Assembly: GCA_964187785.1 (NCBI GenBank)
Contig: OZ076409.1
Coordinates: 47,246,001 to 47,310,000, forward strand
Direction: 5' to 3'
Source: Amphiscolops sp. MND2022
Taxonomy: Eukaryota
Length of the DNA: 64,000 nt
Made by a program: the position numbers and the translations under genes. This document shows, one piece after another, positions 12,901 to 62,438 of the stretch. The notes under the pieces are model-generated. The model did no database searches and had not been told where the DNA came from. It saw nothing but the letters and a program-made list of their open reading frames with translations. The number at the start of each line of letters is the position of its first letter. The first letter of the stretch is position 1.

Positions 12901-13444
12901 GTTCTGGAGTGGTTACATCGCTTTATCATCATTATAGGTGAATTTTGACTAAAGATGAGAAAAAGATGAAAGATTTCCATCGTTTTTCCGTCGTTCTCGA
13001 TTTTAGCACAATTTTCAGGTCTTGGAAGCGTGATTTAGCTATAGATGAGGAAACGATGAAAGATTTCCATCGTTTATTCATCGTTAGTTATTCTAGCACT
13101 GTTTTCAGGTTTTGGAAGCGTGAGTGATGCACAAATGATGAAACATATGGCAACAAGTATTCAATCAAGTAGTTTTATCGCTTTTACATCGTTTTCCAAC
13201 TCTCTCGTTTTCTGGCGTTCTGGTCACGGTCAAACGATGTAATATGGATGAAACTTGTTAGATTGAGTTAAATTATGAGTTCTAGCACCAATAACATCGT
13301 TATTTCATCGTTTCGTGTGTTTCAAAGAGAGGAGGCTTGTCGCGCTAGTTTCCTCTGAGGCGGGAGTTCCCTAGCGAGTGTCAATCTCGTCTATTCGTTA
13401 TGGCGGTCCAGTTTGACCGAGAAACTACTTTCTTTTCTCGTGAC
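10000..13444 (-). mobile_element. Decayed, internally deleted LTR retrotransposon (Ty3/Gypsy-like) with a duplicated 5' region
   Basis: Gag-like ORFs at 11719-12267 and 10212-10682; the latter runs into an integrase Zn-finger remnant (FWPNMRAD..CSAC). Short TG-initiated LTR-like segment at about 13349-13444, followed by PBS-like TAGCGCGACAAG. Confidence 0.6.
10353..13346. repeat. Near-identical direct duplication, period about 1585 bp
   Basis: ORF pairs 10682/12267, 10774/12358 and 11359/12945 are offset by 1584-1586 bp with few substitutions. Confidence 0.95.
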
Positions 13445-29000: not shown

Positions 29001-30483
29001 CGTGTGATTGTCTCGCTCGCTTCTCTCTAGCTTTTTGCTTCCTAGTAGAAGGCATAACAAGAAGAGGTATTGTCAACAGTGAATTGAGTTTAATCTGTCA
29101 ATTCGCAAGTTGTGTTTACAGCTTCAATAATATCGCAAGAATGATCCTTTTTACATACAGTTCCTGATATATATACTAATAGAAACATGACCCGCACAAT
29201 TGTGGGTGTAATCTAGCTAAATATAGGAATTATGTCATATTTGACCTTATCTCATACTAAAAATAGATCAAACGTCACCATAAAAACTACGTCATTCACT
29301 AATAAGTTCTAAAAAATTCAACTGCTTTATTATGAATGGGAAATATTGGTCACCCAATGAAATGGCATCATGCACTAAATTTCATGTTTGTAATTGGAGA
29401 TACTGCTAGAATGAATAGCTTCATGCCAGTCAAAACATAGAAGTAGCGTCAACTAAATAGCAACAATGATGGATTTGTTGTACAAATAGAGCACAAATAG
29501 ACTTTGTGTCCACTTTACGGCAAAGGAGTAATAAATTTGGAGCACTGTGATTGGTTAATAAATAAAAGACGTTGCGTCAACTGGACGGCAACAAAGTACC
29601 AGTTAAACGCGTTTCCTGATAAAATTAGGCCATACATCTGATTATTATTTCATTGAGATTGTTGTATCCTTGATTAGCACTTTCAACTATTATAGTACAG
29701 CAAAGTAATAGTTTTTCTATGATACTAGTTCACTTTTAGAGTGTTGCCTGTAAATCTGTCATTGGTTTATTGTACAATGTAGTAATATAAATATGGTTGT
29801 GCCGTCTAGATGACCTAAGGTCCAAGTACTGAAATATTACAGTAAACGATTAACTATTGCTAATCTATTCTAATTTTACATAAACTAATACCAGAAGCAA
29901 CATAAAAAACGTAACGTACAGTGTCTTAAGCGTGTTTTATATCGGCAGTATTCCTGGTCCCACGTTACTTTGGTCATTTTCTGGTGCGATATGGTAGTAC
30001 ACCCCGTCGCAGGCGGCAGTCTGCAACATTATCCAAGTGCAGGATGATAAAATTTGGAAATATTGCAGAAATTGCTTTAATCGGTCAAAATATAAAATAT
30101 TTCGAGTTTTGGGAGGCTTCTTGACGTATTGTTTATTGCTTTGCTGCGGAGACCTGTTTATTTCCTAAATATCGATAACGTAAAAGAACTGTAGAAAAAT
30201 GCACAGAGGGTCAAAACTACTGGGATTTGTGTGGTGTCAACTCGAGGGACCTTTGGAAAGCTTTTTTTTCAAAAAAAGTTCAAATCTCTCGGTATATGCT
30301 TATACCACGAACTTATTTTGAATGTAATTTTTTTCTAAATAATAACCTTTTTTATAAATTCTTCATAAATTGCGTATAAAATTGGATTTTTTGGGGGGTC
30401 AAAACGCGGCTCAGTTAGCAGTTTTCTTTTTCAACTTGGAAGTATGGGGTGAAAATAAAAAACGTTAGGGTTCAGTTTCAAAG
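26044..30483. repeat. Tandem duplication, unit about 2170 bp, each unit carrying a gag-like ORF fragment
   Basis: ORFs 26439-26906 and 28627-29076 (PSTRKQKAREKRARQS.VMS.VENLDVMIG) and 26210/28380 are offset by 2170 bp. The second unit has an insert of about 140 bp near 29120-29260. The gag-like assignment is an inference. Confidence 0.85.
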
Positions 30484-43567: not shown

Positions 43568-44845
43568 ATGATACGATTCACTGAGAAAAACAACTTGATT
43601 TGTCCCATGCAATATGGATTCAGAAATAGCATGTCTTGTGTTGATGCTATCGCTGCAATAACAGAATTCGTTCGTACTGAAATAGATAAGAAAGCACAAG
43701 GCCAAGTTTGCTTTATTGATTTGCAAAAAGCTTTCGATACGTTGGATCATGACATTTTATTGAAGAAGTTGGTAGATTATGGTTTTAGAGGGAAAATTTT
43801 CGATATTTTAAAAAATTATCTCTCAGAGCGTTGGCAGTACATTAGTCATAACGGTGTTTGCACGAAAAAGCTTAAAATTGTGTCAGGTGTTCCCCAGGGC
43901 TCCGTCTTGGGTCCATTTCTGTTTCTTTTGTATATTAATGACATTCATTTGTGTATGGGAAATTGTACCATGGCCATGTTTGCAGATGATACAACAATTT
44001 GCAGTTCGAAACGCAAAGGTGTCTGTTCAATTCAATCAGATATAGACAATGTATCGCAGTGGTTTTGTCAAAATAGACTTAGTATAAACAGAGATAAATG
44101 CGAAGCAGTTGCATTCGGACGCGGTCATCCCAATGAAATTTTGATTTTAGACAAAAAACTACCTTATTCGAACGCGTGCAAGTATTTAGGTGTTTACGTG
44201 GACAAAACTTTGCGCTTCAGAGAACATATTGATTACGTCGAAAAAAAACTCAATAAGTTCTGTGGTCTGATATATCGCGTACGTCATATGTTCAACAAAA
44301 AGTGTCTACTGATGTTTTATAACTCCTTTGCAAAGTCCAAAATTTGTTATGGATTACTAATATACGGTTCTGCTGCCAAAACAAACTTGTTGAAAATTGA
44401 AAAAGCGCAACGAAGAATTTTACGAGCTATTTTTTTCAAGAAGAAATTTGATTCCCTACGTGATCTTTTTAGAACGAATAAAATTTTGACAGTTTTTGAA
44501 CTTTTCATTCTCGAGAACATCACAGAGCTTTTCAGGCAGCTGAGGTTTGAAGCACCTAAATCTTTCATAGTGCTAGATGCCAATGACGTGAGAACATATA
44601 CAACTCGTTGGAATATGAAAAAATTGATACCGGCGCAATACAATCGGACTGTTTTAAAGAGAAGATCCTTAGAAAATTTCCTTCGCTTAACTTATAATTG
44701 GTTAATGGAAGCAGAATTGATTCCAAAAGATGTGAGGAAACTATCAAGCTATCAAGTTAAAAAGCTCATCACAAGTATAACAACGAACTATGTAGTCGAT
44801 AACAAGTATCTCTTTGCATATTACTTTGAAAAGGAATTATGCTGA
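43568..44845 (+). CDS. Reverse transcriptase of a 5'-truncated CR1/L2-group LINE (element extends to about 45065)
   Basis: QYGFR, FIDLQKAFD, GVPQGSVLGP, FADD and KYLG motifs in an open 425-aa frame; 3' UTR stem-loop and AATAAA. Confidence 0.92.
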   Translation: MIRFTEKNNLICPMQYGFRNSMSCVDAIAAITEFVRTEIDKKAQGQVCFIDLQKAFDTLDHDILLKKLVDYGFRGKIFDILKNYLSERWQYISHNGVCTKKLKIVSGVPQGSVLGPFLFLLYINDIHLCMGNCTMAMFADDTTICSSKRKGVCSIQSDIDNVSQWFCQNRLSINRDKCEAVAFGRGHPNEILILDKKLPYSNACKYLGVYVDKTLRFREHIDYVEKKLNKFCGLIYRVRHMFNKKCLLMFYNSFAKSKICYGLLIYGSAAKTNLLKIEKAQRRILRAIFFKKKFDSLRDLFRTNKILTVFELFILENITELFRQLRFEAPKSFIVLDANDVRTYTTRWNMKKLIPAQYNRTVLKRRSLENFLRLTYNWLMEAELIPKDVRKLSSYQVKKLITSITTNYVVDNKYLFAYYFEKELC

Positions 44846-45515: not shown

Positions 45516-47018
45516 GTGAGTATACGACGGAACGCCTATAGTTAACAGTGAGATGAATATCCCTCATCATGAAACGTCAATGTAATATAAAATTTGAAAA
45601 CATTCTACCTTGAGCTCGTGATTCTATGGAGTTCATTAGTATGAACGCCCTGGTTTCCCTCTCATGCAAAAACCAGTTGATCATAGTCTGTCATAATGTT
45701 TTTTGTTATTTAAAAAATATATGATCCCAGGCTGATCATAGACAAGTCATACAGGTTTATGGTGACAACCTGAACATAGGCTGGACCATCTATGCAAATA
45801 ATTGAAATTGAGTAATTCTTAATAAATGAGCCTTTTTAATCTCAAAACTATAAAAATTGCAATGACTATTTTTGACATCTTAGGCTGATTTATCCACGAT
45901 TGGTGTCAAATGAAACACAAATCTCACTGAAAACTGAGGACTTCGGTAAAAGAAAAGTAGGCGTCCCGGTTAAGGCTCAAGATGCGAAAGTCGTTTAAAT
46001 ACGGTAAAGATTTGATTTTACGAGAGTTTGGAAAAATCTCACCGTGCCAAATAATTCCCCTAGGGGTTGTGCTTCGGTTTCAGAAAAGTGTTTTTCCTCC
46101 CCTAAAACTTCAAAAAAAGAGTACCCATTGGCTACATAAAAATTTTCCAAAAAAGTCGTGCAATCCCGGAGAAAACAAAACATCAAAAGATGACCCTCTT
46201 TTGCAAATCAATGAAAAAGGCGAAATTTTCAAAAGCTGACACTTTGGCTTCTTTGGATCTTAGGCCTGAAGTCTGTAGAAAGTATCGTTTTCAGTGTGAG
46301 CTGTGGTCTGAGGAAAAAATAGTCACCGTGATAGTCGCCCTAGTTGAAGCTGCAGGAACTTTTTACATGCTGCAGGCATGCATGCAGGGTAATTTTTTAT
46401 AGAACCTAGAAAATTCAGAGAACTTCGGTTGGTAAATCATGTACAATTACACTGCATTTTCCACTATTGCAATTAAATTTGAAAATAAATTACATTAAAA
46501 TACCGACACGATCACTTTGTTTTCACACGTTCTTTTCTCAACTACTCATCTGATGTGATTACCGCTTCTCAAATAGCACGCTAGACATGACGCTAACTTA
46601 CAATTTATTATGCGACTGAAGTTATTTTGCATTGATTTAGCGGTAAAATTGATAGCGCCTTATTTGCTTTCAAAATTATAACTGCTGCTTAATGAAACCT
46701 GCAAAACCTCAAGGCTTAAAATTGCCGCCAAAACACTGATGAATCTTTTAAGCAGCCTAATAAAAGTTAAATACAACAGGGACAAATTTTCGCATGAAAG
46801 TTTCCGTAAGAATTTTAGAAAATCATAATAAAAATTGCTGGCAACATTAAAGTACATGCAAAAAGTTCAAGCAGTTTCAACAAGGGCGGGCATATTTTTA
46901 TACAATGTGTTTGTATGATTTGAATGGTGCCATATAATGTCGAGACCATAATTAGCCTAGCCAGGAAACCTGGGTGCTTGACTGTAGGAACACAGCAGCA
47001 AGAGGTTGCAAATAATGC

Positions 47019-47669
47019 AGTAGTAGGGGAAATGCCGTTATTGGCCAACAAAAATTCAAAAAATCAAAGTTCACAAAATCCCCCCTTTTAGAGGCATTTT
47101 CACGAAACATATCATTAAAATTAGGGTTTTTACCATGAAGTAACAAACATCATGATGCATTTCCAAAAATAAATCATCAAAATCAACGTTTTTACCATAC
47201 CGATTTTGACCAAGATTTCAAAAGCCCCAAAACCCCCCCTTTAGAGGCACTTTTCAAAAAGAAATCAACAAAACTGGGTTTTTACCATGAAGCAAAAGGA
47301 CACGAACCTCTATGCTAAAAGCAATGCAATGTAAAAGCAATGCAATGTGAATGCAAGATTGTAGAAGCAATCCGGTATTTATACAACTAAAACTAACATT
47401 GTTTCGTCTCCTATAGCTTAGTGGTTATAGCATTGACTAAAGTTAAGGCTTCGGCCGGAGTGTTTGAGGTTCACTTCTATCCAACGTCCCCCAGTCTTTG
47501 TTATAACTTACATGCTATGGGAGAATAATCACCAATGGCACAGGTCTTAAAAAGGATAATCCCTGCTGTGGAAACTCTTAGTGGAACGGACTCCCGATGG
47601 GCTTTGAGTTTACCATAGGCATGTCAATGCGCGAAGCTGCGGGCATGCCTATGGGTTTTGTATTTTTCA
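47019..47669 (+). repeat. Polinton left TIR (about 651 bp)
   Basis: Reverse complement of 61488-62017, with about 125 extra bp (about 47196-47321). Confidence 0.95.
47407..47524 (+). ncRNA. Candidate structured Pol III-type RNA inside the TIR (mirror copy at 61632-61749, minus strand)
   Basis: A-box TAGCTTAGTGG, imperfect B-box GGTTCACTTCT, and stems TCTCCTATAGC/GCTATGGGAGA and GTTATAGCA/TGTTATAAC. Expression is not shown. Confidence 0.35.
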
Positions 47670-47729
47670 TACATGGGAAATAATTTTAGAAATGAGTATT
47701 CACACACAACAATGAAAAATAACTAATAA

Positions 47730-48155
47730 ATGAAATATTTGTCATGTCAATATCTCTCATTCAAAGAATTTGTTGAAAAATACAGACCAAAAAGCGAAGC
47801 AACTTCTAATATAAAAATAAAAGAAATCTTGAAACTCATGAACATAACCGAGTGTGGAATATACATGAGAGATGATAAATTTACGACTACCAGTGGTATT
47901 GTTAACTTACATCCAACTAAAGGAACACATTGGGTTATGTTTGTTAACGAGTTTTATTTTGATTCTTATGACTGTCCACCTCCAACTAATATACTTGATC
48001 ACATTAAAAAAGGTATCTATTCAGAATATCAAATTCAGAAAAATGATAGCTTTTGCGCGGCGTATTGTTTGTATGTGTTGTATCTCACAAATATAATTGG
48101 TTTCAAAAATGCAGTACTAAATTTGTACTATCAAACTTTCAAACCTAATAAATGA
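47730..48155 (+). CDS. Adenain-like virion maturation cysteine protease
   Basis: GTHWV (His), YFDSY (Asp), QIQ..SFCAAYC (Gln/Cys). Confidence 0.9.
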   Translation: MKYLSCQYLSFKEFVEKYRPKSEATSNIKIKEILKLMNITECGIYMRDDKFTTTSGIVNLHPTKGTHWVMFVNEFYFDSYDCPPPTNILDHIKKGIYSEYQIQKNDSFCAAYCLYVLYLTNIIGFKNAVLNLYYQTFKPNK

Positions 48156-48343
48156 AGACAATTAATACTTATTCAGCTCAATATAAATTTATCCCACAAA
48201 ACTTCACAGAACAACCCACCCAGAATCAAAATCGAAATCATACAAAAAATACAACAAAGCCGCATAAGAAAAAATTATCAAAAGATAGGCAAGAATTTAT
48301 AAATAACATTTCCGCCAGTGGATTCAAACAATTTCAAGTATAA
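48152..48343 (+). CDS. Small basic hypothetical protein
   Basis: TAAATG start; overlaps the protease stop codon; Lys-rich. Confidence 0.45.
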   Translation: MKTINTYSAQYKFIPQNFTEQPTQNQNRNHTKNTTKPHKKKLSKDRQEFINNISASGFKQFQV

Positions 48344-48376
48344 TGCACAGCTTAGAAAAAAGATTTTTTCTAATAA

Positions 48377-49668
48377 ATGGATCTATCAACCTTCGTAACA
48401 TATGATAAAAAAGAATCTCTTCTTTTAAATATTGCAAAATCTAATCAAGAAATTGTTGAAAATACTCATTCTAAACCACAAGAAACTCTAGAATTTAAAA
48501 TGACTAAACAAAAAGAATCTTTCGCATTTGATGTTCCTTTGGAATTACCTGAAAAATGGATGATGGGAGTAACAAGTTTAGAAGTGTATAATACAGTTTA
48601 TAATATCACTAACAGCAATAGCAAACTAGAGATTATTCTGAATGATCAACAACTCAAAGAACTTAACCTTGACAGTGAATTATTAGTGTTTGTTGAAGAT
48701 TTATACAAATCCTATTTTGTTAAACCTTACAAGTATAGTGAATTTTTAGAAAAGGTTAATAAGCTTATCACTAATAGTTATTCTAAAAAAAGAAACTTAC
48801 TAGATTAGATTTTACCTATTTAACAAAGATAATTGAATCACTCAATGAAATATATAAATAACGCCTCAATCAAGAAAAACTAAAACAAGAAATAAACCAA
48901 GAAAAAATGAACCAAGAAAAAATAAACCAAGAAAAAGAAAATCAGGAAAGAATAATTCAAGCATACAAAGATCACCTAAAACATGAAAAAATAATTTGGG
49001 AGGAAATAAAGTGGGAGGAAATAAATTGGGATGAAAAAAATCAGGACGAAACAACCCAAGAGGCAAAGCTACGCGAAACAACTCAAGAAAATCAAGAGGA
49101 TGAAGTAAACTAAATAAAGGAAATAAGTTTACCCCCCTTTGAAATTATTGAAAATGATTTCTTTGAAATAGAACTAACACCAGGAGTTTATGAACTAGTT
49201 GATATAAATAATGCTATTAAACTAAAAATTCATGAAAGTGATTATGATTTTAAAATTGATATGATACCCGACACAATATCAATGAAATCAGTTCTAACAA
49301 CCTCAAACCCTATTCATTCTAACTCCAGACTTAACATTCTTTTGGGTTTTACAAACAAGGATTACCCACCCGGAACTCACACTTCAGAAAAACCAGTTAT
49401 GATAACAACCACAGACAAAGTTCATCTGAAGTGTGATTGTGTAGATGGTTCAATTGTTAATGGTATACGGGAACAAAATTTATTTTCATTTAATTTAAGC
49501 GCACCTCCCGGATATAAAATTATAAAAGAACCCACAACTGTTTTGTACAAGCTGATAAATAAAACACGACTGGACACCATCCAATTTTTTCTTGAAGACT
49601 CCAACCACGACAGAGTTGATTTCAACGGGGAGACACTCACCTTCACAATTCAAATTATCAAGATTTAA
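48377..49668 (+). pseudogene. Minor capsid (penton-like) protein, disrupted, with a low-complexity insertion
   Basis: N-part FDVPLELPEKWMMGVTSLEVYN; C-part LKCDCVDGSIVNG..LFSF..PPGYKI..VDFNGETLTFTIQI; split into three ORFs. Confidence 0.8.
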
Positions 49669-49731
49669 GCAATAAACTTAGATTTAATACTAATGCGAAG
49701 CTGGGAAAAAATGAAAATTCTTTTCTAATAA

Positions 49732-50152
49732 TTGAGTCACAATAAGCAAAGCGCCTTCGGTAAATATAAAAATAATTCATATTGTGTTGGTGCAAAACAT
49801 TATTCCGCTACCACAAATATTCGTGGAGATATTACACAAAATAAAAAAACTGGTATGTCAGTAAAACTATTAAGAGGTACTTGCACTACTTGCACTGTAT
49901 CAGATCAAACAATAAATGGGGAAGGATTAGGAGATTTCTTCAAACATTTGGGTTCTGCTGCCAAGAATGTTGGAAAGAAAATACTCAATAATCCACGCCG
50001 CGCATTGGAAATAGCAGCAAATATTGGAACGGCAGCAGCAAGTAGAAATCCAAAACTTATTGCTGCAACTGCTCCTGTTATCATAAAATTTGTTCATCAA
50101 GGAAAGGGTTTATATTTTGGGGAAAACTCATTAATGTGCGCAACTTCGCATT
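49732..50152 (+). CDS. Probable virion core protein with a Zn-ribbon-like N-part and an amphipathic helix after GEG
   Basis: YCVG...GTCTTC followed by GEG|LGDFFKHLGSAAKNVGKKIL; the 3' end is probably frameshifted. Confidence 0.55.
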
Positions 50153-50171
50153 CACTAAATATATTTAATAA

Positions 50172-51203
50172 ATGTATTCAATTCATAATCGCGATGACTT
50201 GGAAAAATTAAAAAAATTACAAGAAACAAAATCTTTACTACACAAAGAAAGAATAAAAGAGAAACTAGGGAAGCAAGATTTTCATTACGATATGGAAGAA
50301 GTTTTTGAACCTGTTACTACAAAGCAGGCGGAAGCTACTGAAAACCAGAAACAATTATCTGAAAAACAAATACAAGCACTACATGATTCTACCCGCGCAG
50401 CTTCACAAACAACAGTACAAGCAATAGAAAATCAAACACAGGCAATTCGAGAATCGAGTAACGCTTTGAAAAAAAATTTACAGACATCATTTAAAGAAGG
50501 AATACAAGAATATGATGAAATTACGAATCGTAATAATCAGCTCCCTACAAGTCTTGTTAATTCCAACCTGGTTGATTCTAGTATTGTAAAAACAGTTTCT
50601 AATTTACTTAATGACAAAAACAAAAGTCAATTTAGTTGAGAACCAATTACACAAGACAACCCGCGCAGCTCCGCGAATTTATTCACAATTAACCCTCATA
50701 ACCCACAACAAGTAATATTCAAAGGTTCAACGATGACTTTCGAGAATGGGCAATCATATGATTTAAATGACCCAGATCTTCAATATTTTATAAATAATAC
50801 TCAATTTAACAGAGAAATATTAAATATGAACATAATTTATAATTTCTTAAATGATATGAAATATAACATAAATTATGGGGATAAAAAATCAAATAGATAT
50901 AATTTCATTAAAAATTTGCATACTGCTTATCAAGAGTTGCGAAGCCAGTCGAGAAGCCAATTACAGGGCTTCACAGGAAGTGGATTGAATGGTGATGCTT
51001 TACAAATCATCTTCCTCCCATCTGATCCAGATGAATTAGTGGATCAATTAAAACTTCTTTATTTTGAAAAATTAGGAGGAAATGACAACCCCCAAATCAA
51101 TGAACAAATCATAGCAATTGTAGATAAACTAATAGAGTATGAATGCATTACAACAAATCAACACCAAAATCTGATCTCCTCGCAAAGCCCCTCAATTACT
51201 TAA
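50172..51203 (+). pseudogene. Polinton coiled-coil protein with C-terminal LPSDPDELVDQL motif, one in-frame stop
   Basis: ORFs 50172-50639 and 50733-51203 share a frame, separated by TGA; GSGL precedes the C-terminal motif. Confidence 0.6.
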
Positions 51204-52205
51204 AGGATCAGTTTGTGGATTAAAGACCTTATAATTTGGATTAGATTCATTACAAATCCTGAACCTACTCCCATTTTTAACTTCCAATCTATTTACTAAT
51301 AAATAATTGAATTTTTCGTTCCATGCTTCTCTGCACAAACTGTTGAATTCCTCATAAGACATATCAAATCCTGCTATGTCCCAATGAATGTGTTCTACAT
51401 CTTTCAGTGTTTGTTGAAAAAAAATTATTATATTCGAATTGTTTCTAACTGTCTTTTTTGGTGCATCAAAATAACTCTGACATAAATAATAAACATCACA
51501 CAACTTATGTCTTCCTCTGGTAAAAAATGGATCAATCAGTTTTTGGTTGGAGTCTAACATATCATCAAATACTACACAACACTCCCTATACTCTTCCAAA
51601 TCCCCCACATTTTCTTCCACACTTACACCACCAATATCAATGTCCTCATATTGTTCCGGACTCCTCCTAAAAACACAAATTTGTTTCTCTGGATCTTCCA
51701 AACGAATCAATTGTAATTTATTCAACAACAAATGAGTCTTACCACAAAAAGATGGACCAACTATAAATGTTTTATTACACTTATTATCATTATCATTATT
51801 ACGTTTATTATTATGTGTGTGGGAACCTGCGTGAAGCTGTGAATGCTCCTGCGCGGGAACCTGTGTTAGCTGTCGCACGGGAAGCATGTCACGCGCAGCT
51901 TCGCCCCCAGTATGTGCGTGAAGCTCTGCGGGAACCTGTGTGGGAACCTGCGTGGGAAGCTGCGGATACAACTGTTGTTTCTTAATGTGGGATCTTAAAT
52001 AACTCTTATTTAATTCCTTATTGCAAAATTCACACCTCACTTTTTTATTAAAACATTCTTTCCAAGTACTGTACAGTTTACCATTTTTGTATGAATAAAA
52101 AGTATCACAATTCTTCATAATATTACATTCCTCACATCTTTTTTTATGACTACAATTATCACACAGTGATTTTTCACTACTTTTATTACAAAATAAGCAG
52201 TTCAT
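51192..52205 (-). CDS. A32/FtsK-like packaging ATPase with N-terminal Zn fingers
   Basis: Walker A IVGPSFCGKT, Walker B VVFDD, TRGRH, LCQSY; several CxxC pairs at the N-terminus. Confidence 0.9.
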   Translation of the reverse strand: MNCLFCNKSSEKSLCDNCSHKKRCEECNIMKNCDTFYSYKNGKLYSTWKECFNKKVRCEFCNKELNKSYLRSHIKKQQLYPQLPTQVPTQVPAELHAHTGGEAARDMLPVRQLTQVPAQEHSQLHAGSHTHNNKRNNDNDNKCNKTFIVGPSFCGKTHLLLNKLQLIRLEDPEKQICVFRRSPEQYEDIDIGGVSVEENVGDLEEYRECCVVFDDMLDSNQKLIDPFFTRGRHKLCDVYYLCQSYFDAPKKTVRNNSNIIIFFQQTLKDVEHIHWDIAGFDMSYEEFNSLCREAWNEKFNYLLVNRLEVKNGSRFRICNESNPNYKVFNPQTDPLSN

Positions 52206-52492
52206 TTTTTTGGTAAAAAATCACTTAACTTCTCTAAACTTCACTAATAATCACTATGTAATCACTATGTAATAACTATGTAATCACTATGTATTCACTA
52301 AGCAAATTTCACTAAATCACTATGTATTCACTATACAATCACTAAGAGCATTTATTTCTCTAAGATTAAAGAGTATTGTGAAATTTAGAGAAAATAAATG
52401 CTCTTAGTAATGCTTGGTGATTGTCTAGTGTTTCTTAGTGTTTCTCAGATCCCTAAGAATCACTAAATAATCACTAATTACTCAAGAAATCA

Positions 52493-52741
52493 CTAAACAT
52501 TTTGCGAAGCCGTATTCAGCTTATTTTTAGGAAAACTTTTTGCATGATCATATATAATTTGCTTAAAGTCCTCTTTAACTGAATCACTAATTAGTGGTTG
52601 TTGCATACGCTCAACGTAGTTGTCTATTCTGGATTCATTCACTTTTATTTTGTTTTGTTTACAATAAGATACATAATAAAAAGCTATGTTGTATGGTGTT
52701 ACTTCAATTGTCTGGTCAGACATCTCCTCTAAAAGTATCAA
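52493..52741 (-). CDS. Hypothetical; possibly the frameshifted tail of the second ATPase
   Basis: Lies directly downstream of, and co-oriented with, the continuation of ORF 52984-53718. Confidence 0.4.
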   Translation of the reverse strand: MILLEEMSDQTIEVTPYNIAFYYVSYCKQNKIKVNESRIDNYVERMQQPLISDSVKEDFKQIIYDHAKSFPKNKLNTASQNV

Positions 52742-52983
52742 AGTATCTTCAATCTGTTGTATTCATCACCAGTGAAAACATAACTTTCATAAGCAACGCA
52801 GTCCTCTGGACTCCACTTATTCTGTTTGCTAGAATCATAAATTATATTGTAGTTGTTGATTAGTATTTTGTACTTTTGACTCCTAGTGTCAAATTCAATA
52901 ATACCAAATTCTAATTGATCGCGGAAATATTTCCACCTAAGAAGGAAACCAGGATGTTTAATTGAATAGGTTTGTTTTATGGT

Positions 52984-53718
52984 TTAAAAAAAGTTATCTG
53001 GGTTATTAATTGTTAAGTATATTTCGAAACAATTCTCTCTTACAACTGGGAGAACATCCTTTGCATAGTGAGCGAGATAAATTACTTGAATCTTGTGTTG
53101 TCTACCATATCTAAATAAGTCTTCTACTTTTGTTTTCAGGTTTTTATAGGCACCTGCATCATCCAGTATAACAATTTTATTAACAAGTTGTTCAATACTA
53201 ATAGTCTCCAACTGCAGTAGTGGTACAAAATTTTGAGAGGGAAACTCACGTTCATCTTGTCCAAATACTACGTAAGTTCGTGGAGTGGCGTTAGCTGTCG
53301 CGTTAGCTGTCGCGTTAGCTGTCGCATGTGCTAAATAATGCTTCAGGAAGGATGTCTTCCCAGAGTCACTACTGCCATAGATTATAAAATGTGAGTTATT
53401 GTTATGCGAAGCTACGCGAGAATCTTTGATAACTCCCAGTCCATCTTCGCGCTTGGCTTCAATTTCCTGGTTTGTCAGATGAGAGTATTTAAACCCTTCA
53501 AATTGTAGCAGTTTTTTATAAATTGTTTTATACTGTCTAGGGCGAATATAAGTCCAATATATTGCAACAACAATACATATAAATAAAATTAAACATACAA
53601 TAAACATCGGATTTGTGATTACTTTATAGATTCGTGTTTTCTGAAACCAATTGGCTTCGCGCCAGCTATGCACAGCTTCACCGCCTTGATCATTATTCAA
53701 GCTATAATCATTATTCAT
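52984..53718 (-). CDS. Second A32/FtsK-like ATPase with an N-terminal transmembrane helix (3' frameshifted)
   Basis: FIVCLILFICIVVAIYW; Walker A IIYGSSDSGKT, Walker B VILDD, RYGRQ, YLAHY, VREN. Confidence 0.8.
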   Translation of the reverse strand: MNNDYSLNNDQGGEAVHSWREANWFQKTRIYKVITNPMFIVCLILFICIVVAIYWTYIRPRQYKTIYKKLLQFEGFKYSHLTNQEIEAKREDGLGVIKDSRVASHNNNSHFIIYGSSDSGKTSFLKHYLAHATANATANATANATPRTYVVFGQDEREFPSQNFVPLLQLETISIEQLVNKIVILDDAGAYKNLKTKVEDLFRYGRQHKIQVIYLAHYAKDVLPVVRENCFEIYLTINNPDNFF

Positions 53719-53741
53719 TTATATAGAAAAAATTGTTATAA

Positions 53742-54608
53742 TTGAACCTAAAACATCAAATCACTGAAGAAATATTCTCTCCTGTAATCAAGAAGTTTCA
53801 AAGAATTCAAATACAAACTCACTATAAAGATGAGTGCTGGAGTATCGATTTGATTGATCGCTCAAGTTTAAGCAAATACAACAAAAACTTTAAGTTCATT
53901 TTCACAATAAGTGACAATCATACTAAATATGCATGGGCGATTCCCCTCAAAGATAAATCAGGAAAAAGTACCACAACTGCATTCAAGATTTTATTGGAAA
54001 CTAGTAAAAGAAAACCGCACAAAATTTGGAGTGATAGAGGTAAAGAGTTTTACAACCAGACATTTTTACACTACTTAAACGAGCAAAACATTCAAATATA
54101 TTCAACTAATTCAGATATAAAAGCAGTTTTTGTTGAACGTTTCAATAGAACACTACTGGACTTAATCAAAGAACCAATGTACATTGAGGGTAAAGGTAAC
54201 TGGTTGAATCACCTTGATGCTGCATTACAAAAGTATAATAATCGTGTCCATGGTACAACAAAAATGACACCATTTGATATGAGTTTTAACAATCTAATAC
54301 CACGAAGCTACGCCAATCCGATACCTAATGATAGTAAAAAAATACCTAAATTCCAAGTGGGAGATTTTGTAAGAGTTCCTGACAAACGCAGTGTGTATAG
54401 TAAAGGTTATACAACAAAATGGAATAGAGATCTTTTCAAACTACACAGCATCAACAAAACAAACTCAGTAACATACACTCTAAATGATGAAAACGGAGAA
54501 ATTATTCAAGGAAAACACTATGAACAAGAACTCTTAGGAAGTAAATTCAACTTTGACTCCAACAACAAAACGTTAGAAAGTATGAAAATTTTCCACAAAA
54601 TAGAGTAG
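53742..54608 (+). CDS. Retroviral-like (rve) integrase
   Basis: DDE motifs WSIDLID, WSDRGKEF and VERFNRTL; C-terminal FQVGDFVRV..KGY..W; no chromodomain visible. Confidence 0.95.
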   Translation: MNLKHQITEEIFSPVIKKFQRIQIQTHYKDECWSIDLIDRSSLSKYNKNFKFIFTISDNHTKYAWAIPLKDKSGKSTTTAFKILLETSKRKPHKIWSDRGKEFYNQTFLHYLNEQNIQIYSTNSDIKAVFVERFNRTLLDLIKEPMYIEGKGNWLNHLDAALQKYNNRVHGTTKMTPFDMSFNNLIPRSYANPIPNDSKKIPKFQVGDFVRVPDKRSVYSKGYTTKWNRDLFKLHSINKTNSVTYTLNDENGEIIQGKHYEQELLGSKFNFDSNNKTLESMKIFHKIE

Positions 54609-54644
54609 TGTTCCACGTAGTTTCACAATAATTTTCTATTAAAA

Positions 54645-55886
54645 ATGAATTTCAATGATTCAATGCTTTCTTTGAAAAGTAAATACACACTCGAAAAACC
54701 TATTAATAAAATTGATTTTATTAAATACTCGCCTAGTAGTTTTGCGACAGTCAATAACGCCAACTCGAATATAAGTATCAGTTTACCAAGAGGAGATGCT
54801 TATGTTTGTTTACAAAATAGTTTCATAAGTCTAGAATTTGAAGTACCTTAAAACAATAATACAAGGTACAATGATGGTGATGAAATAAGTTTAGTCAACT
54901 TTCGGCCTGTTGCTTTATTTAGTGAAGCTAAGCTGACAACATCATCAGGCAAACACCTGGAAAAAATTGATAATTTGCACCCCATCTCTTTATTGATTAA
55001 ACTTCTAACTAGCAGTCAACAAACTTCTCAATTGATGTATGGGTTTGAAGAAAGTACTACTATCAGAAGACAAGAACTAACAAACAATAAAACAGAGAAA
55101 ACAACCTTTTTTGTGAGAATAAAACTAAAAGACTTGTTTGGATTTGCTGATCAAGAAAAAATAACTTATGGGTTGGGCTACACTCTTACGTTAAAACGGA
55201 ACACTAGCAATGATATGATTTTAAGAGGTGCTGGAGTGGATGCTGCAAAAGTAGTTGTAAAAGACATTTCATGGTATATTCCACACTATGTACCAAACTT
55301 AGAAAACCAACAACTTGTCATGGATCAGCTACTGAATAAAGACCCAACTGAGTTGTTTTACACGGAACGAATTATTTTTAGAAAAGTTGTTAACACCAAT
55401 AATAACTGGACATTTGAATTAGGCACTTCAGGAATATCGACACCAACTTTTGTGATTGTTGGATTTCAAGCCAGAAATAAAATTGATTCACAAACACACA
55501 ATAATGCACTATTTGATAAACTCCCAATTAGTAATGCTGTCTGTAAAATAGGATCAGAAAAATATCCCGATGATGGAATAAAATGTGACTTCGACCGCGA
55601 TAAATATGATCAAGCATACAGTGAAATTGAAAACTTTTATACTTTGCATTCTGATTGCATTCTACTCAATCCGTTTTTTGATTTGCATAAATTCAGAACA
55701 AATTATAATTTTTATGTATTTGACCTAAGCAAACAAAAAGACCAAATAGCTTCTCAACCAATCAGATTAGAATTTAATTTTAATGCTGCCATTGATGTAG
55801 CAGACTACATAGCATATGCATTAGTTCTAACCCCAAAACTAATAAGTATTAGTAGTGATGGACAAAGGCATTTTGACCTGATTTAA
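54645..55886 (+). pseudogene. Major capsid protein (double jelly-roll), interrupted near 54849
   Basis: MCP-like motifs IKLKDLFGF, ISWYIPHY.P, PTFVIVGFQ and FYVFDLSKQ; total size about 410 codons. Confidence 0.85.
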
Positions 55887-56054
55887 CATGATTTGATATG
55901 AGAAGAATGCTGGAGGAATGATAATGCCAATATTATAATAAATGATGATAATAATGTTATGATAATAAAAATGATAAATCATATTGCTAATAGTGTAATA
56001 AATGATAATAATAATAATTATAAAATATGTGTGTGTCAGTTATTACGCCAGTTA

Positions 56055-59000
56055 TCACAAAAAATGGGCCCGATCACATATCAGATTTAAAAGGTCTTGA
56101 TGATTCAATTTTTCTTTCAGAGTCCAAATATTATAGTATATTTCCTCATCCCGAATTGGCTTGCCATCCGTTTCACTAGTGCTCAATTCTTTATAATACA
56201 AACCCACTATTTTCAAACAATATATACAAGGACAATCACCTTGCTGGGTGTGTTTGTCCCATGGTAAACTTTGTATTGGATTTAAGTACAGTCTTTTGTC
56301 ATCAAAAGGATTCAAAGCTAGTTTATCTTGTTTCTGAAAAGTTAAATTGTGCGCATTCGAACGGATAGAATAATTAGTTGCAGTTGTTGAAACTGAGTTA
56401 AACAAACAATCCGTGTAGTCATTTAATTTTGGGGCTTTTGTATTCCTTTTTGTTTGGATTTTTGGATATTATTATAACTAAAAGAATATGATTTAGATCT
56501 CAAAGCTACGAAGTTGTCTAATTCAATAATTGGTGATGTTTCTATTTTCATTTTACCTATAACTTTCTTGTTAATAGTATCATACAACTCTTGACTGGGA
56601 TCTAATTCACTGAAATCAAAATCATTTTTAAAATATTCCAAGTCTTTTATAAGGTCTCCAGTTTTAATACTTAGAATGAATGAGTTTGTATCCATGTAAT
56701 GCAGTTTAATTTTATTGTTATAATATGGTTGTAATTTGTGATATTAAAACTCATACATTAACAATTTACTCAGTTCTAAAACAGAGAATCCCAAGTAAAT
56801 TGGTTTATCAAAGACTGTCTTTTCTTTATCAAACTTGTAAACACTGAATTCGGAGAAATGATTTACAATACCTTTAAAGCTTAACTTAGATTGTCTTTTT
56901 TTATTTGCTCAATATTGGTGTGGGGGATAAACTCTAAATTAGTCCGGTCTCTAACATTTTCCATAGTCTTACCAAAGAAAGCATTATTCATTAATTTGTA
57001 CAAACCTTTTTTAAAGTCTGTTTTTGCTAATGTGCGTTGTTGGGTGTTATAATCAATGTATTGTGCTAACCATGGACTTTGCTTGAAGCGGTAAACACAG
57101 TGAATCTTTGTTACTTTCATCCACAAATTCGTGTAAAACTTGAACATCCTGTAGTGCATCATACAATTATATTTGTTTGTTAGGTCACACACAAGCTTTT
57201 GGGTTGGTTTATAATTGGGCTGTTTTACACTATTCATATAATCTGAGAATAAATTTGAATCCGCTTTTGTTTGATATGGACATAGTGGAAAGTTTTCGGT
57301 TTTTTCTTTAATTTCTGCTGGATATTCAAAATCACATTCTATGAAGAATCCATGTGGGTTGTTGTCTGGAATAAATCTCAAATCTTCTACTATTTGTTCT
57401 AGTATATACTCTTCAGGAAAATATAGCTTTTCGAATTCTCCAGTAGGAAGGTATTGACTCATTGCCCATCCATACAAGTTATTTGCATCAATGTACAAAT
57501 GTTTAGTGTTTTCATCAGATTCAATATAACGAGGTCCCATTACACTTGAAATTCCTCCACAGATATTATTTTCAAGTAGTAGTAGTAGGTCTTCATCTTT
57601 TATGAAATCTAATTTAATATCAGTAAGTTTTAAACCAGCTTTCCATGTATAACCAGGTAGAGAGTAGGAGTACAAAGGATTGATGCCATACATAAGGGTG
57701 CTTGTTTCAACAAAGTTTTCGAACACGTCAGTGATTGTAGAACATCCATTTTTAAGTATAACATAGTAAGTTGTAGAGGTGTTGTAATGTTGTATTTGTC
57801 AATCAAATGTTGGGTTCTTTTGATATCATCATCACACGGGTAAGATTGTTGTAATGTTGACCAAAAGTCTTCTTTTGTTAGATTCAATGGTTCTTGGAAA
57901 TTATTAGGATTGAATTTCTCGTATGGATAGGCTAACTTCTTCTTAAACAAATCATCAATTAAACCCTCACTATTCATATACTTGAGAGTATCTAGCGATG
58001 CTATAAGTTTTTGTAGACTACTACTCAAAAATCTGTATGAGTCTAAAAACCTTAAACAGCCTACTTGAACTGATACATAGTTTTCTATTGACTTTGTTAT
58101 AATATTTATTGGCAACTTTAGATTATAAGCTGATGTTAAGAGTCCTTCAAAAATTAAATGACAATCATAACCACTGAAATTATGGAAAAATATAGGAACA
58201 AACGAACTTGACTTTTTTTTACAATTTAAATTACACTTTTTGTGGGCTGCTCCTCGGTACTTGCCTGTAAGATGATCGTGATCTCGAACTGTATCCTCAC
58301 CGAGTGGATTTTCACAAAGCCAGCATATGGTAAACTGTTGAAATGATTCTTGCGGAGCTACGCCTTCTTCTTCTTCGGGGGTCATTTCAAGAGGAATATT
58401 AGTTTCGAAATATTCCAATGCCAATTCTTCTAAAGTCAACATTTCATTTACAAACCATGTTACACAATCTACTCCAAAGTATGAGCTGAAATTATTGCCA
58501 AATGGTGAAATTAGATAAAAGCCTACTGGAATTGGAATTTGTTTAAATAATACTTTGGGCGCGATAGCTACCGCAGCTTCGCGGTCATCTGTTGGTTGAA
58601 TAATACATTCGAAATCTGCATATACTCTTATTGGTACGGGAACTTTCATATGATAATCTTCGAACTTTAAGTGATCCTTCCAACTGAATGTGATATTAGT
58701 TGGTTGTTGTTTTTGACAACGGTCAATGTGTTGATTGAGAATATCCTCAGAACTGAATGCAGTTAGACATCTTCTACACACCCATTTCATGTGTGAACTT
58801 TTATTTATTAGACAATGCAACTTTGTTAATAGGCAATAATGATTTTCAAATAACAGCAAGTCTATTTGTGGTTGATCATAATTCACGTTCGTGTGAATTG
58901 GTGTTAAAACTGTTTTTGTGAGTTCAAAAACATTTACGTTTAAATAATTTAGGTTTTCGAACTTCGGAATGTCTTTAACTTTCATGGGGAATTCTAAACC

Positions 59001-59861
59001 ATTTAAAATGAGTTTGTTTGTGTGCATTGAATAACTTGATGTTCTATTTTTATGATCCTCAACGGGAAAAAAGTGTGCTAGGATGCACCATAAAAAACAA
59101 AATTGATCATCATTTTTTATATTTATAATTGATTTATTATTCTTGTATTTTTCTGGCAACTCAACCCACGAAGAGGCTTGAATATCATTGATTTTGTATA
59201 TTTCTAATAAAACTTCTTTTATTTCTTGAAACACAAAACCTGATCCTTCTAATTGTTCATCATCTAATTTCTGCATTAATGTGTTGTGCAAAGCTGCGCG
59301 AATTGAATCTTGTGTGTGATTGTAATTAAAATCTGACTTAACCCATTTGTGAAATACAACTTCTTCTGCGAAGCCCTGCACAATAACTATTTTTGAAAAC
59401 TTAGCTAAATAACTCAATTGATATTTATATCGGGGAAAGTAATTTTTATTCAGTAAATCATTAATCTGTTCTTCAAGATGATTTGTTGGATTTACTCTCA
59501 GTTTAATGTATGTTTTTTCGTTCACAATTACTTCTACTCCAGACTGCATACTGAAGGCGAGAGCTGGTGCGAAAGCTGGTGCATTTCATGTAGCTTGACT
59601 TCTTAGCGTGTGGATTTCACTTTGGAAATGTCTTGTTTTATCATTAATGTATTTACCACAATCTTCACATCAAACTTGTTGTTTAGTTTTGTTCTTGTGT
59701 TGGTCAGAATTTAAATGATTTGACTTCTCTGATAGGGGCATAAATTTACTACAATTTTTACAATAATATTGATTTAATTTTTCTAAATGTTTTACTGATT
59801 TCAGATGATCAGACTTGAAAGCTTTTTCATAATCAGAATTACAGATAATACAGTTCTCCAT
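56055..59861 (-). pseudogene. Protein-primed family B DNA polymerase with N-terminal Zn finger and an endonuclease VII-like insert, fragmented
   Basis: Exonuclease motifs YADFE and FHNFSGYD; CWLC..DHDH.TGKYRG..H..CN; polymerase motifs YIDANNLYGWAM, KLMNNAFFGK and YMDTNS; several frameshifts. Confidence 0.95.
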
Positions 59862-60005
59862 TTATTTATAATAAATTTACGAATTTAATAGCAGTATATT
59901 TTTCAATAGTATGTTTTTCAATTAATGAGTAGTAATTTTTTATTTTACTTTTTATGTTAAAAATAGTGTATTTTCAATTATTGGTGTTAATTTTTGTTTT
60001 ATTTT

Positions 60006-60665
60006 TTATGTTAAAATTGAATAAATTAATAATAAATTATTGTGTGGTTTAAGTGGTATTGTTGGTGGTGTGTGGGAAGTTGCGGTAGCTGTCGCGCGTG
60101 AAGCTACGTGTGATTTTGTATGTGATGTTGTGTGTGAAGCTGCGCGCGAAGCTACCTGATATTTTTCAAATTGAGTCACAAATCGGTGATATTCTTTTTC
60201 ATCTATGTACTTATCTAGTGGTAAATAATTGTCTAAAGTCGCAAGTGTCTTCTGAATAATAGTGTACTCAAGTTTATAATTTTGCTCCTTTTTCTTCAAA
60301 TAACTGGAACAAATTTTAACAAGAATACCAGTTACACAACCAACTCCTGCAGTGATTGGAACAACTATAATGCCCACACCAGTGATACTTAGTGTAACGG
60401 ATGCTGAAGTTGTTCCTGTTCTTATGAGACAATCTGTTGAGTTAATCATGTTATTTATTAGCTTGTATTTGGTGTATTTCTTCTTATATTTATTTTCTTC
60501 CAATTCATAATATTTCATCATTAGACTAATGTTTTGAATAGAATTATTGAAACTATTTACTATTTGTAATTCGCTTTGCAATCGCTTATCTATCTTTGAT
60601 TCTACATCATATGGTGCAGAGGGGCTCATTAGTGAAGCCGTTGGAGGATAGAGTTTTTGTTCCAT
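60006..60665 (-). CDS. Coiled-coil protein with a hydrophobic helical hairpin
   Basis: SASVTLSITGVGIIVVPITAGVGCVTGILV flanked by Lys-rich helices; N-terminal LYPPTASL and PSAP. Confidence 0.65.
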   Translation of the reverse strand: MEQKLYPPTASLMSPSAPYDVESKIDKRLQSELQIVNSFNNSIQNISLMMKYYELEENKYKKKYTKYKLINNMINSTDCLIRTGTTSASVTLSITGVGIIVVPITAGVGCVTGILVKICSSYLKKKEQNYKLEYTIIQKTLATLDNYLPLDKYIDEKEYHRFVTQFEKYQVASRAASHTTSHTKSHVASRATATATSHTPPTIPLKPHNNLLLIYSILT

Positions 60666-60721
60666 TTATTAATCATATAAAATGAAATTTACTTCCGTTG
60701 GTGTTAATTTCATTCTGTGTT

Positions 60722-61469
60722 TCATATCAACAAGGTCTTTATAGGAATTTTTTTCAATGACTCCAGAATTGATTGTCTGGTAGAATATTCTAAATCAGAC
60801 AGATAATATTCACCATCTGAAGTAGGTATTGTTTTTCCATACTTTTCCAATAAGTATGTTTCACTGAAAGTTAGATAATTTGCAAAAGCTTGATCTTTAT
60901 TGGGAAAAGAATCAAACAAACCTTTGTTATAAAACAGTTGAATTATTTTGTTAGTTATAGTAATTTTATTGTGATCTAGGCTATTAAGAATATTATTTAT
61001 TTCATTTTCATTTAAAATCATTCCAGCTTGACCCACTGAACTCAGAAACTTTAGGTTACGGACTGTTAACTTTTCAAAACTATTGTTGTGTATTAAATTT
61101 AGTACTTCATTTACTAAAGCAGTTCTTTGATCGGTGAAAGATTTTTTCATATTTTGTTCTAAATTATTTATGGTTTTTGAAAGGTCTGAAAACTGGGAAA
61201 CTAATATCATTGAATAACTTTGTGTTTAATAAAACATCTTGAATTTCCTGTGGGTCTAGCATTTGTTCCAGCATTTTTTCTTCTATTAATTTCTCTTGAT
61301 TTTCTAGGTCATTTTCAAAATCACGTTGCAAATCTTCTTTTAATTTGGAATGGGTTATTTGGACTTTTTTTTCTTGACTTTGTATCATATCTTTTAGCTC
61401 CTGATATTCCCTCAGTTTTAGCTGGTCACTAGAATAACCAAACTTATGAAGAGACGGAGTTTCATACAT
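60722..61469 (-). pseudogene. Hypothetical coiled-coil protein split by a frameshift
   Basis: Overlapping ORFs 61164-61469 and 60722-61210; TAAATG start next to the TIR. Confidence 0.55.
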
Positions 61470-61487
61470 TTATTAAGATGAAAAAGT

Positions 61488-62017
61488 TGAAAAATGCAAA
61501 ACCCATAGGCATGCCCGCAGCTTCGCGCATTGACATGCCTATGGTAAACTCAAAGCCCATCGGGAGTCGTTCCACTAAGAGTTTCCACAGCAGGGATTAT
61601 CCTTTTTAAGAACTGTGCCATTGGTGATTATTCTCCCATAGCATTTAAGTTATAACAAAGACTGGGGGACGTTGGATAGAAGTGAACCCCAAACACTCCG
61701 GTCGAAGCCCTAACTTTAGTCAATGCTATAACCACTAAGCTATAGGAGACGAATCAATGTTAGTTTTACTTGTATAAATACCGGATTGCTTCTACAATCT
61801 TGCATTCACATTGCATTGCTTTTACATTGCATTAGAATCGGTATGGTAAAAACGTTGATTTTGATGATTTATTTTTGAAAAATACATGTTTGTTACTTCA
61901 TGGTAAAAACCCTAATTTTAATGATATATTTTGTGAAAATGCCTTTAAAAGGGGGGATTTTGTGAACTTTGATTTTTTGAATTTTTGTTGGCCAATAACG
62001 GCATTTCCCCTACTACT
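61488..62017 (-). repeat. Polinton right TIR (about 530 bp)
   Basis: Reverse complement of the left TIR. Confidence 0.95.
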
Positions 62018-62438
62018 TAATGCGAATGACACCTTTACACGTTAAAGCTTAGTTCAAACCTCTAATAATTACAAGATAATCTCGATGCTACTATTGTCAA
62101 CGAAGATAGATTTTTTTAAAAGCTTGAAGGAGCTCTCAATTTTAAAAACTGTTTCGCATTAACAGAATTTTTTGAAAATGTTGATTTTGTTCCATTGCAA
62201 GTGAACTTCGCCTATTTAATTTCATGCAAGAAACGATTAGATAAACAAACATGCGTGAATTTTTGACCTCCAGAAATTTTTATAAAAGAGCCTGCCTATT
62301 TTAGTTAGAGATTAATAAGATAGAATTTTCAATACTTTATAATGTTTAGGTAATTATTTTTAAAAATAAAATTCAAACTTACATTGACACGAATATTTTT
62401 ATAAGAAAATACAAGCTGAGTTTGATTTCATTGTTCAG

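Follow-up and report, generated by a model that had tools for sequence, protein, structure and literature searches.

Positions 47019-62017 of the window, the 64,000-nucleotide stretch of Amphiscolops sp. MND2022 DNA analyzed here (contig OZ076409.1, positions 47,246,001 to 47,310,000), form one Polinton/Maverick-type element, a chromosome-integrated DNA virus of 15 kb with 32% GC and the ends AGTAGT...ACTACT. The group of Polintons to which it belongs carries four ultra-short, structure-defined insertion elements that are clade-specific within that one group. With a probability of roughly three in four, we take these to be insertions that spread selfishly, being copied into new sites during the extrachromosomal replication of the Polinton. 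We favor this reading because the units are present or absent at dozens of unrelated sites, have a fixed net size, are confined to one group, come in clade-specific types, vary only in their loops and are shared between separately integrated copies.

The starting point was the heptamer GCGAAGC, islets of which, according to the original prediction, are scattered through the element as either a dispersed cis-acting code or a self-propagating micro-insertion. All 11 exact GCGAAGC/GCTTCGC positions that it named are present, with one more at 47794, as are GCGGAGC at 58352 and 50668 and GCGAAAGC at 59569. GCGAAGC is the most enriched 7-mer of the window element, occurring 12 times on both strands of 47019-62017 against 0.36, 0.23, 0.40 and 0.86 expected under Markov orders 0, 1, 2 and 3; the excess thus persists once composition is corrected for. 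In the host DNA of the window (49 kb) the heptamer occurs 6 times against 2.0-2.7 expected, with three copies clustered at 4216-4279. This GCTTCGC trio lies within a foldback-like or miniature inverted-repeat transposable element-like region (1700-4550) comprised of nested long inverted repeats, with 665-nt and 271-nt arms, and 38-nt tandem units.

Although the heptamer is present and enriched as predicted, the real unit is larger, a 12- or 14-nt doublet centered on AGCT. With all AGCT listed, two types emerge around the 7-mer, type A, GCG-N-AGCT-N-CGC (12 nt), and type B, GCG-NN-AGCT-NN-CGC (14 nt). Each A or B unit consists of two mini-hairpin sequences (GCGNAGC or GCGNNAGC) that lie on opposite strands and overlap by GC, and the ends of the unit are the 5' ends of its two hairpins, so both strands define it. 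Type C is comprised of CC-GRA-GG and an opposite-strand GC-RNA-GC between two TA, its middle pyrimidine and end purine mostly co-varying (T..A or C..G) like a base pair, while type D is CC-GGA-GG or GC-RAA-GC together with CAGC-NNN-GCTG.

The sections of PMC13037366 cited here define DNA mini-hairpins as GCGNAGC or GCGNNAGC and report that, of 64 triloops, GNA alone folds, that stems of GC-GC and CC-GG support the fold, unlike CG-CG and GG-CC, and that the mini-hairpin is exonuclease-resistant, binds SSB poorly and is weak in its RNA version. The doublets follow this rule of a GNA or GNNA loop on a GC-GC or CC-GG stem. Across 58 A and 98 B sites, loop letters vary freely and changes elsewhere are mainly CpG-type transitions, a count in which non-loop positions are fixed by construction in the strict patterns but left free in the one-mismatch profile. 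The letters that vary are the very ones that the loops of GCGNAGC and GCGNNAGC tolerate, so that the link to GNA mini-hairpins holds better than the original prediction could know. With GNA loops, GC..GC and CC..GG stems are enriched and CG..CG and GG..CC stems are not (counts include homologous sites), and the stems enriched in the two clades described below are just the two that the rule permits. It is the fold that is conserved. The RNA GNRA rule fits only 65/196 B half-sites, for which reason an RNA route was rejected; judged by their letters, the loops appear to fit DNA rather than RNA rules. Perfect palindromes are avoided by both types (A, 3/58 sites against 17.7 expected; B, 0/98 against 14.1 expected), and standard DNA parameters give such palindromes a rival hairpin of the ordinary kind that is stronger by about 1-2 kcal/mol. 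The GC-ANA-GC variants, which are common in C and in some A, are outside the published GNA rule. ViennaRNA with DNA parameters predicted the mini-hairpin in neither A nor B, and standard models do not account for mini-hairpin stability according to the same sections of PMC13037366. An origin of the doublet from two separately added half-hairpins was rejected: perfect palindromes are lacking, A-B hybrids are rare, and the listed 5-6-nt indels include no insert of half a hairpin.

The islets of the window copy are listed here, with strand where one applies (TIR, terminal inverted repeat; ORF, open reading frame; pPolB, protein-primed DNA polymerase B).

47631-47642, forward strand: A-like islet in the inner TIR stem loop, mirrored at 61515-61526, from alignment with siblings L059 and L063
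47794-47800, forward strand: GCGAAGC that is not an insert, from sibling lengths
49063-49074: type A doublet
49743-49762: type C doublet, a 16-nt core between two TA, net +18 relative to empty siblings
50395-50406: type A doublet with one CpG-type change
50663-50674: type A doublet
51831-51965: cluster in the Zn-finger ATPase linker, with A at 51893-51904 and 51918-51929 and B at 51863-51876
53288-53325: three tandem type B units of 12-nt period in the second ATPase gene
53406-53417: type A doublet in the second ATPase gene
53654-53681: nested A and B units near the start of the second ATPase gene
58352-58363: type A doublet in pPolB (EGVAPQES), 14 carriers and 12 empty siblings
58559-58582: in pPolB (REAAVAIAP), type B unit 58561-58574 set at GC inside an older type A unit
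59288-59299: type A doublet in pPolB (IRAALH), a replacement with small net change
59368-59379: type A variant in pPolB (QGFAEEV), 16 carriers and 13 empty
59557-59582: two degenerate tandem type B units in the pPolB N-terminal region
60082-60153: array at the 3' end of a membrane-protein ORF, with B at 60082-60095 and A at 60134-60145 and from 60146

The type A unit at 51893 is +12 relative to 18 siblings. The type B unit at 58561-58574 is present in 16 copies and absent from 13, and the sister clade is 8 residues shorter at REAAVAIAP. Besides its A and B units, the window holds one 18-bp type C insert, at 49743-49762. The TIR-loop and IRAALH islets are present where they were predicted but replaced similar-length sequence rather than adding 12 bp, the former (47631/61520) having taken the place of an A-rich loop. 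The GCGAAGC at 47794 is a coding coincidence, as siblings show no insert-size length change there: the site has the same length in 20/22 and is 1 base shorter in 2.

Evidence that the units are insertions was obtained by comparing the window copy with 30 siblings fetched whole (30 of 39 non-self matches), to which 10 of 11 capsid loci free of A and B and 10 further copies were later added. Among the first 31 copies, a size of 12 nt accounts for 128/611 indel events, and the sizes 24, 36 and 48 form additional peaks. By one method, 137/496 indels are 12 nt (113 with an islet) in 10 copies of the window's clade (clade 1) against 15/334 in 10 copies of its sister clade (clade 2), where the peak is at 18 nt (26/334); event counts inside tandem arrays are partly redundant. 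When isolated units were set against an empty allele, A was net +12 at 49/53 sites and B +12 at 23/28, with 39 A and 24 B sites lacking any empty allele in this first comparison. In the larger locus set, A was net +12 at 59/65 sites with an empty allele and B +12 at 15/25, while type C was net +18 at 15/16 sites, always at TA or TG, and type D net +21 at 4/5, likewise at TA/TG steps. A self-propagating micro-insertion, as the original prediction proposed, is strongly supported by these polymorphic net +12 differences at unrelated sites.

The insertion sites differ by type. Type A produces no target duplication and avoids a 5' adenine (2/118 ends), and the empty site of type B is usually GC or a CpG-type variant of GC. 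Compared with the perfect TIRs and constant target-site duplication of a MITE or DDE transposon footprint, B is flanked by GC and C/D by TA, but A lacks a duplication, and some C/D junctions pair a TA with a TG across the insert, as blunt insertion would give. Among 88 12-nt islet events, 56 are at motif-free sites and 32 have an islet already in the empty allele, on which basis a microsatellite or slippage repeat was rejected. Single-copy A inserts in the TIRs are likewise +12 and are not tandem duplications; the TIR being assumed non-coding, size is not only a matter of frame selection. The inserts occupy genes and terminal repeats, mostly genes, where the reading frame is kept. At EGVAPQES, 97/144 alignments of distant polymerases have a net 6-residue gap, so this islet does not correspond to conserved residues of distant homologs. 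Four-nt flanks are identical between carrier and empty allele at 37/59 A sites, about the level expected from copy divergence (this expectation is itself an estimate), and co-conversion of flanks was accordingly discarded. The units thus have the character of short palindromic elements, optional at many unrelated sites and with substitutions concentrated in the loops.

For the 24/31 copies with both TIRs located, element DNA contains 311 A, 393 B and 36 A-B hybrids in 357,850 bp, while the host flanks contain 0 A, 0 B and 1 hybrid in 73,806 bp; host DNA is therefore not equally dense. One exact type A 12-mer has 1611 genome matches against 15 for its reversed control. Of its first 30 loci, 27 lie in this Polinton family, and the 3 outside are two point variants of a fixed host-repeat tract and a third locus resembling the same repeat. 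The type C pattern is matched 548 times in the genome and its control 0 times, and 30/30 of those examined lie in this Polinton group. An abundant host repeat of ~250 bp (2527 candidates), sometimes in inverted pairs, has fixed GCGAAGC tracts with 5- or 10-nt length variation and no 12-bp inserts. A second Polinton group, covered at 30 polymerase loci, contains neither A nor B in 132,723 bp; its polymerases are 25-33% identical to the window's where aligned, and its three type C pattern matches are one site in three near-identical copies. This second group includes about seven subfamilies with a GC of 40% and many near-identical copies with long open polymerase frames.

Within the window's own group, 11/30 capsid loci are free of A and B, and the ten of these that were fetched whole constitute clade 2, which has the same ORF clusters as clade 1. 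Types A/B/C/D number 329/451/6/2 in 30 clade-1 copies and 0/2/30/34 in 10 clade-2 copies. A clade-1 copy holds 3-44 A+B, with 33-43 per copy in a young burst family, and a clade-2 copy holds about 6 C+D. The types occasionally cross over: two B units lie in the second ATPase gene of one clade-2 copy (L194+L195, oriented about 6428 and 6795), and C units occur in a few clade-1 copies (site near window 58294), with recombination or insertion in trans as candidates. Gene content was rejected as the cause of the clade difference, as all main ORF clusters are common to clades 1 and 2; of two ORFs that seemed peculiar to clade 1, one is a frame antisense to the end of pPolB and the other a short ORF that inserts have lengthened, and clade 2 has both regions.

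No capsid relative was found in viral or metagenome contigs. Pattern scans of other hosts returned 19, 2, 9 and 13 stretches, whose matches are local or single and lie mostly in GC-rich DNA, and the last 24 of these stretches contain no protein of this element (the first 19 were outside that test and prokaryotic genomes outside the scans). Capsid proteins in ENA with 82-88% identity carry matching short insertions (EAAQ, DRYR), in assemblies perhaps not independent of this genome. The known range is this genome plus these ENA capsid proteins.

As to timing, 35/56 primary events are carried by at least two separately integrated copies, and most TIR islets are present in both TIRs. Of 17 inserts scored as private to one copy, 2 reappeared in 10 new copies and 15 stayed private. 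Private inserts do not rise with frameshift load (Spearman 0.10, p=0.63), are more frequent per private substitution in 12 young copies (8/436) than in 13 old ones (9/1723, p=0.012), and are bunched in few copies (p=0.009). Conservation at 12 private sites is as background (p=0.33), and 30 shared sites are at variable places (p=6e-4 vs private). Gene by gene, with approximate gene limits, the capsid has 1 site in 1.24 kb (0.8/kb), while the ATPase, integrase and PZ-like genes have 21-28/kb. Such results are what one expects if units enter almost at random while a viral lineage replicates and purifying selection acts afterwards.

How could such units be copied? Polintons replicate by strand displacement, and a template switch by the viral protein-primed polymerase is the mechanism to which we would give nearly an even chance. 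The doublet would behave as a ‘self-unzipping’ duplex, each strand folding into a very stable hairpin while the outer ends bound a bubble. A stalled nascent 3' end of pPolB may then jump onto the bubble or an exposed single strand and copy across, a jump that would be aided by 0-2 nt of microhomology (GC for B, TA for C/D and none needed for A). The new end would fold into an exonuclease-resistant hairpin, release and go back to the old template, after which purifying selection on the virus would retain inserts in loops and linkers. Type B would require a GC step, which in AT-rich DNA would be found mostly within older inserts, and the arrays that lengthen proteins would follow from this. A second mechanism, in which the HNH domain of pPolB or a host nuclease or topoisomerase makes a nick or break and a hairpin-protected oligonucleotide is captured, is a possibility that we hold more tentatively; it would better explain the target bias than a template switch does. 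A bolder generalization is plausible but well short of an even bet, namely that 12-21-bp DNAs without an enzyme of their own make a protein-primed polymerase copy them through their self-unzipping shape alone, arose at least twice (A/B and C/D) in sister viruses, and are rewriting proteins 4-7 residues at a time.

Several observations weigh against selfish copying of this kind. A cis-donor test was null, a second same-variant copy being found in the carrier in 35/65 cases against 37.9 expected, which leaves same-molecule copying unsupported. The avoidance of 5' adenine by A (2/118 ends) fits a nuclease and not a pure template switch; A has GC at both ends yet adds +12, not +10, even at GC-free sites; and the sizes of B are less clean, 10/25 not being +12. 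HNH occurs in 104/150 distant homologs, yet A-type peptides number 8 in 132,239 residues there against 14 in 8,533 in clade 1. As these distant homologs have HNH and no excess of islet peptides, the domain, although present in both clades, was rejected as a sufficient cause. The HNH motif was also unmatched in 30/30 second-group frames, which are partial (391-1194 aa), so its absence there is not proven. The timing test rests on 17 events, and sibling L043 has two private inserts in the right TIR only, which fits a last-round event or post-integration insertion. An insert in a conserved part of pPolB, first scored private, is common to 8/10 new young copies; some conserved-site inserts are therefore tolerated.

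Two other readings give the units a function or a different author. The doublets might be a selected cis-acting viral signal, for single-strand protection, second-strand priming, packaging or protein loading, of which more is better. Either displaced strand would bear a nuclease-resistant, SSB-poor hairpin, such hairpins are known at the phage G4 and RSF1010 origins and the N4 promoters (sections cited of PMC13037366), both clades independently bear doublets, with 33-43 A+B per copy in the young burst family, and one islet lies in the inner TIR stem loop. We nevertheless judge a selected signal unlikely, and with it the dispersed cis-acting code of the original prediction finds no support as the cause: no position is conserved, copies range from 3-44 A+B in clade 1 to about 6 C+D in clade 2, which is almost free of A and B with the same genes, and the second group has none. 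Shared sites are moreover confined to variable regions, as for inserts that are tolerated rather than favored, and the origin of exact 12-bp units is left unexplained. A secondary benefit of the doublets to the virus may exist all the same.

Addition of units after integration by a host process, such as a repair polymerase, topoisomerase or trans-acting transposase, would account for the two private inserts of L043 in one TIR, for the 15/17 private inserts still private after 10 more copies, and for a target bias (pyrimidine 5', TA for C/D) that is like enzyme preferences; topoisomerase I and Tc1/mariner have target preferences similar to these. We regard it as improbable, since the units are absent from host flanks, from the second Polinton group and from the abundant GCGAAGC-bearing host repeat, where variation is by point changes, since their types are clade-specific within one host, and since most events are common to copies at different loci with no rise as copies decay. 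It is very improbable that nothing is mobile and that slippage and gene conversion have worked on a few old GC-rich patches; the arrays do include tandem expansions (32/88 12-nt islet events) and periodicities of 10 and 12 nt, but 56/88 events are motif-free, among them single-copy inserts without flanking similarity, and this reading is largely refuted. Mini-hairpins disturb gel-based Sanger reads according to the cited sections of PMC13037366, but a hairpin-caused sequencing or assembly artefact is hardly credible for inserts that are common to related copies, usually lie in both TIRs, are in frame and track the copy tree, and that are matched by the insertions EAAQ and DRYR of the ENA capsid proteins, whose assemblies are perhaps not independent.

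Selfish micro-insertion, the reading that we prefer, has precedents of which the portions of the literature cited here give an outline. MUSE1 of Podospora (11 bp, >100 copies), the Neurospora PstI palindromes and the Allomyces double-hairpin elements are mitochondrial ultra-short invasive elements (PMC7218506, PMC1864894), and like them the Polinton units are very short, GC-rich or palindromic, dispersed and optional, encode no enzyme and are thought mobile. In contrast to MUSE1 and its kind, which are organellar, the present units reside in a chromosome-integrated nuclear DNA virus, and they are paired opposite-strand mini-hairpins with net sizes in multiples of three, in frame, and of four types over two clades. 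With the yeast mitochondrial GC42 clusters they share presence or absence, loop substitutions and array merging, a putative 2-nt target duplication and a proposed helper endonuclease (excerpts of PMC4478555). GC42 is 42 nt long and mostly intergenic, with a suspected RNA route (PMC4478555, same excerpts), whereas the Polinton units are 12-21 bp, lie mostly in genes, include type A without duplication and have loops that break the GNRA rule. Bacterial REPINs are likewise mobile doublets of inverted imperfect palindromes in non-mixing groups (as described in parts of PMC3337134), and here too A-B hybrids number 36 against 704 A+B. REPINs are larger, extragenic, have a spacer and depend on a dedicated RAYT tyrosine transposase (same parts of PMC3337134), unlike the Polinton units, whose halves overlap or abut; no RAYT-type transposase had a Pfam match among 18 window ORFs (several of them without assignment) or appeared among the element ORF clusters. 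The mini-hairpins of G4, RSF1010 and N4 follow the same sequence rule but are single functional sites rather than paired, dispersed and polymorphic, and the cited sections of PMC13037366 describe no mobile form. The units thus work like MUSE1, GC clusters, double-hairpin elements and REPINs without sharing their location or helper enzyme.

The host elements resemble HNH-bearing pPolB Polintons as portrayed in the consulted portions of 10.1101/2023.08.22.554363 and PMC11071308, with TIRs, a 6-bp target-site duplication, rve, A32, a double jelly-roll capsid and a putative pPolB with an inserted HNH domain, and differ in having two A32-like ATPase genes per element. The micro-insertions set them apart as well: neither for Polintons nor for other viruses are such inserts described in the literature searched, with subscription journals largely uncovered and supplements outside its scope.

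If the selfish reading is true, the units would be among the smallest selfish DNAs. The cited portions of the literature leave unsettled the way in which ultra-short palindromic elements such as MUSE1, GC clusters and double-hairpin elements spread. The system described here has >1000 candidate copies (1391), alleles with and without the insert, four types, a sister clade almost free of A and B as a control, a second group free of them and few genes, and with such controls the question should be testable with one polymerase and short oligonucleotides. The long-known chemical oddity d(GCGAAGC) would probably gain a function in nature, as the foundation of a mobile unit, and the inserts would be indirect evidence for an extrachromosomal, selected, single-strand-exposing phase of these Polintons, and would provide a route to in-frame protein lengthening as well as lineage markers for recombination among copies.

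The window element itself is a broken copy, with stops and frameshifts in several genes. Its assignment is based on TIRs with AG...CT ends, a 6-bp target-site duplication in the window and its siblings, an rve integrase, an A32 ATPase (matches below the Pfam cut-off) and a double jelly-roll capsid. Its parts are given below.

47013-47018, forward strand: left target-site duplication, 6 bp TAATGC, from sequence
47019-62017: Polinton/Maverick-type element, broken copy, from TIR arms, ends and rve, Pox_A32 and double jelly-roll-like matches
47019-47669, forward strand: left TIR, from inverted-repeat arms
51192-52205, reverse strand: Zn-finger and A32-like ATPase with islet-rich linker (PF04665 weak; islet density)
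52984-53718, reverse strand: second A32-like ATPase with hydrophobic N-terminal stretch, islet-rich (PF04665 weak; islet density)
53832-54608, forward strand: rve integrase gene, split (PF00665)
55035-55886, forward strand: double jelly-roll major capsid, C-terminal open frame, with 1 islet site (PF21738; islet density)
56060-59900 (approximate), reverse strand: putative pPolB gene in pieces, the candidate copying enzyme
58227-58337, reverse strand: HNH / endonuclease VII-type domain inside pPolB, a candidate nuclease (PF02945 E=2e-4, below cut-off)
61488-62017, reverse strand: right TIR, from inverted-repeat arms
62018-62023, forward strand: right target-site duplication, 6 bp TAATGC, from sequence

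The protease, penton, pVII-like and PZ-like genes carry labels that we presume from motifs, without profile matches. The pPolB pieces of the window have no DNA_pol_B_2 match, and the frame of their N-terminal part shares 25-33% identity with most PF03175-positive polymerases found in this genome; the C..C / DHDH / H..CN motif of the HNH domain is intact. Sibling copies hold pPolB frames of 1272-1302 aa, and the genome (1.07 Gb) contains 1391 candidate matches to the window polymerase region. Two A32-like ATPase genes per element are found in both clades. Sibling TIRs range widely in length, from about 150 to 690 bp, and an inner 300-bp block with a CCATAGGCATG stem is found at the right end only in many copies. 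Between the two ATPase genes, 52249-52490 consists of AATCACTATGT-type 10-11-nt repeats whose length differs among copies and which are unrelated to the islets. CpG is lower in element DNA (about 7-25 per kb) than in host DNA (mostly 25-50 per kb); clade-2 copies are lower still in GC (0.27-0.29), and much of the extra CpG of clade 1 comes from inserts. Upstream of the element, an RVT_1 ORF of non-LTR-type reverse transcriptase lies at 43568-44845, and at 10212-13181 and 26044-30348 two direct-repeat pairs, spaced by about 1585 and 2170-2300 bp and accompanied by gag-like N-terminal ORFs, are probably remnants of long terminal repeat (LTR) retroelements.

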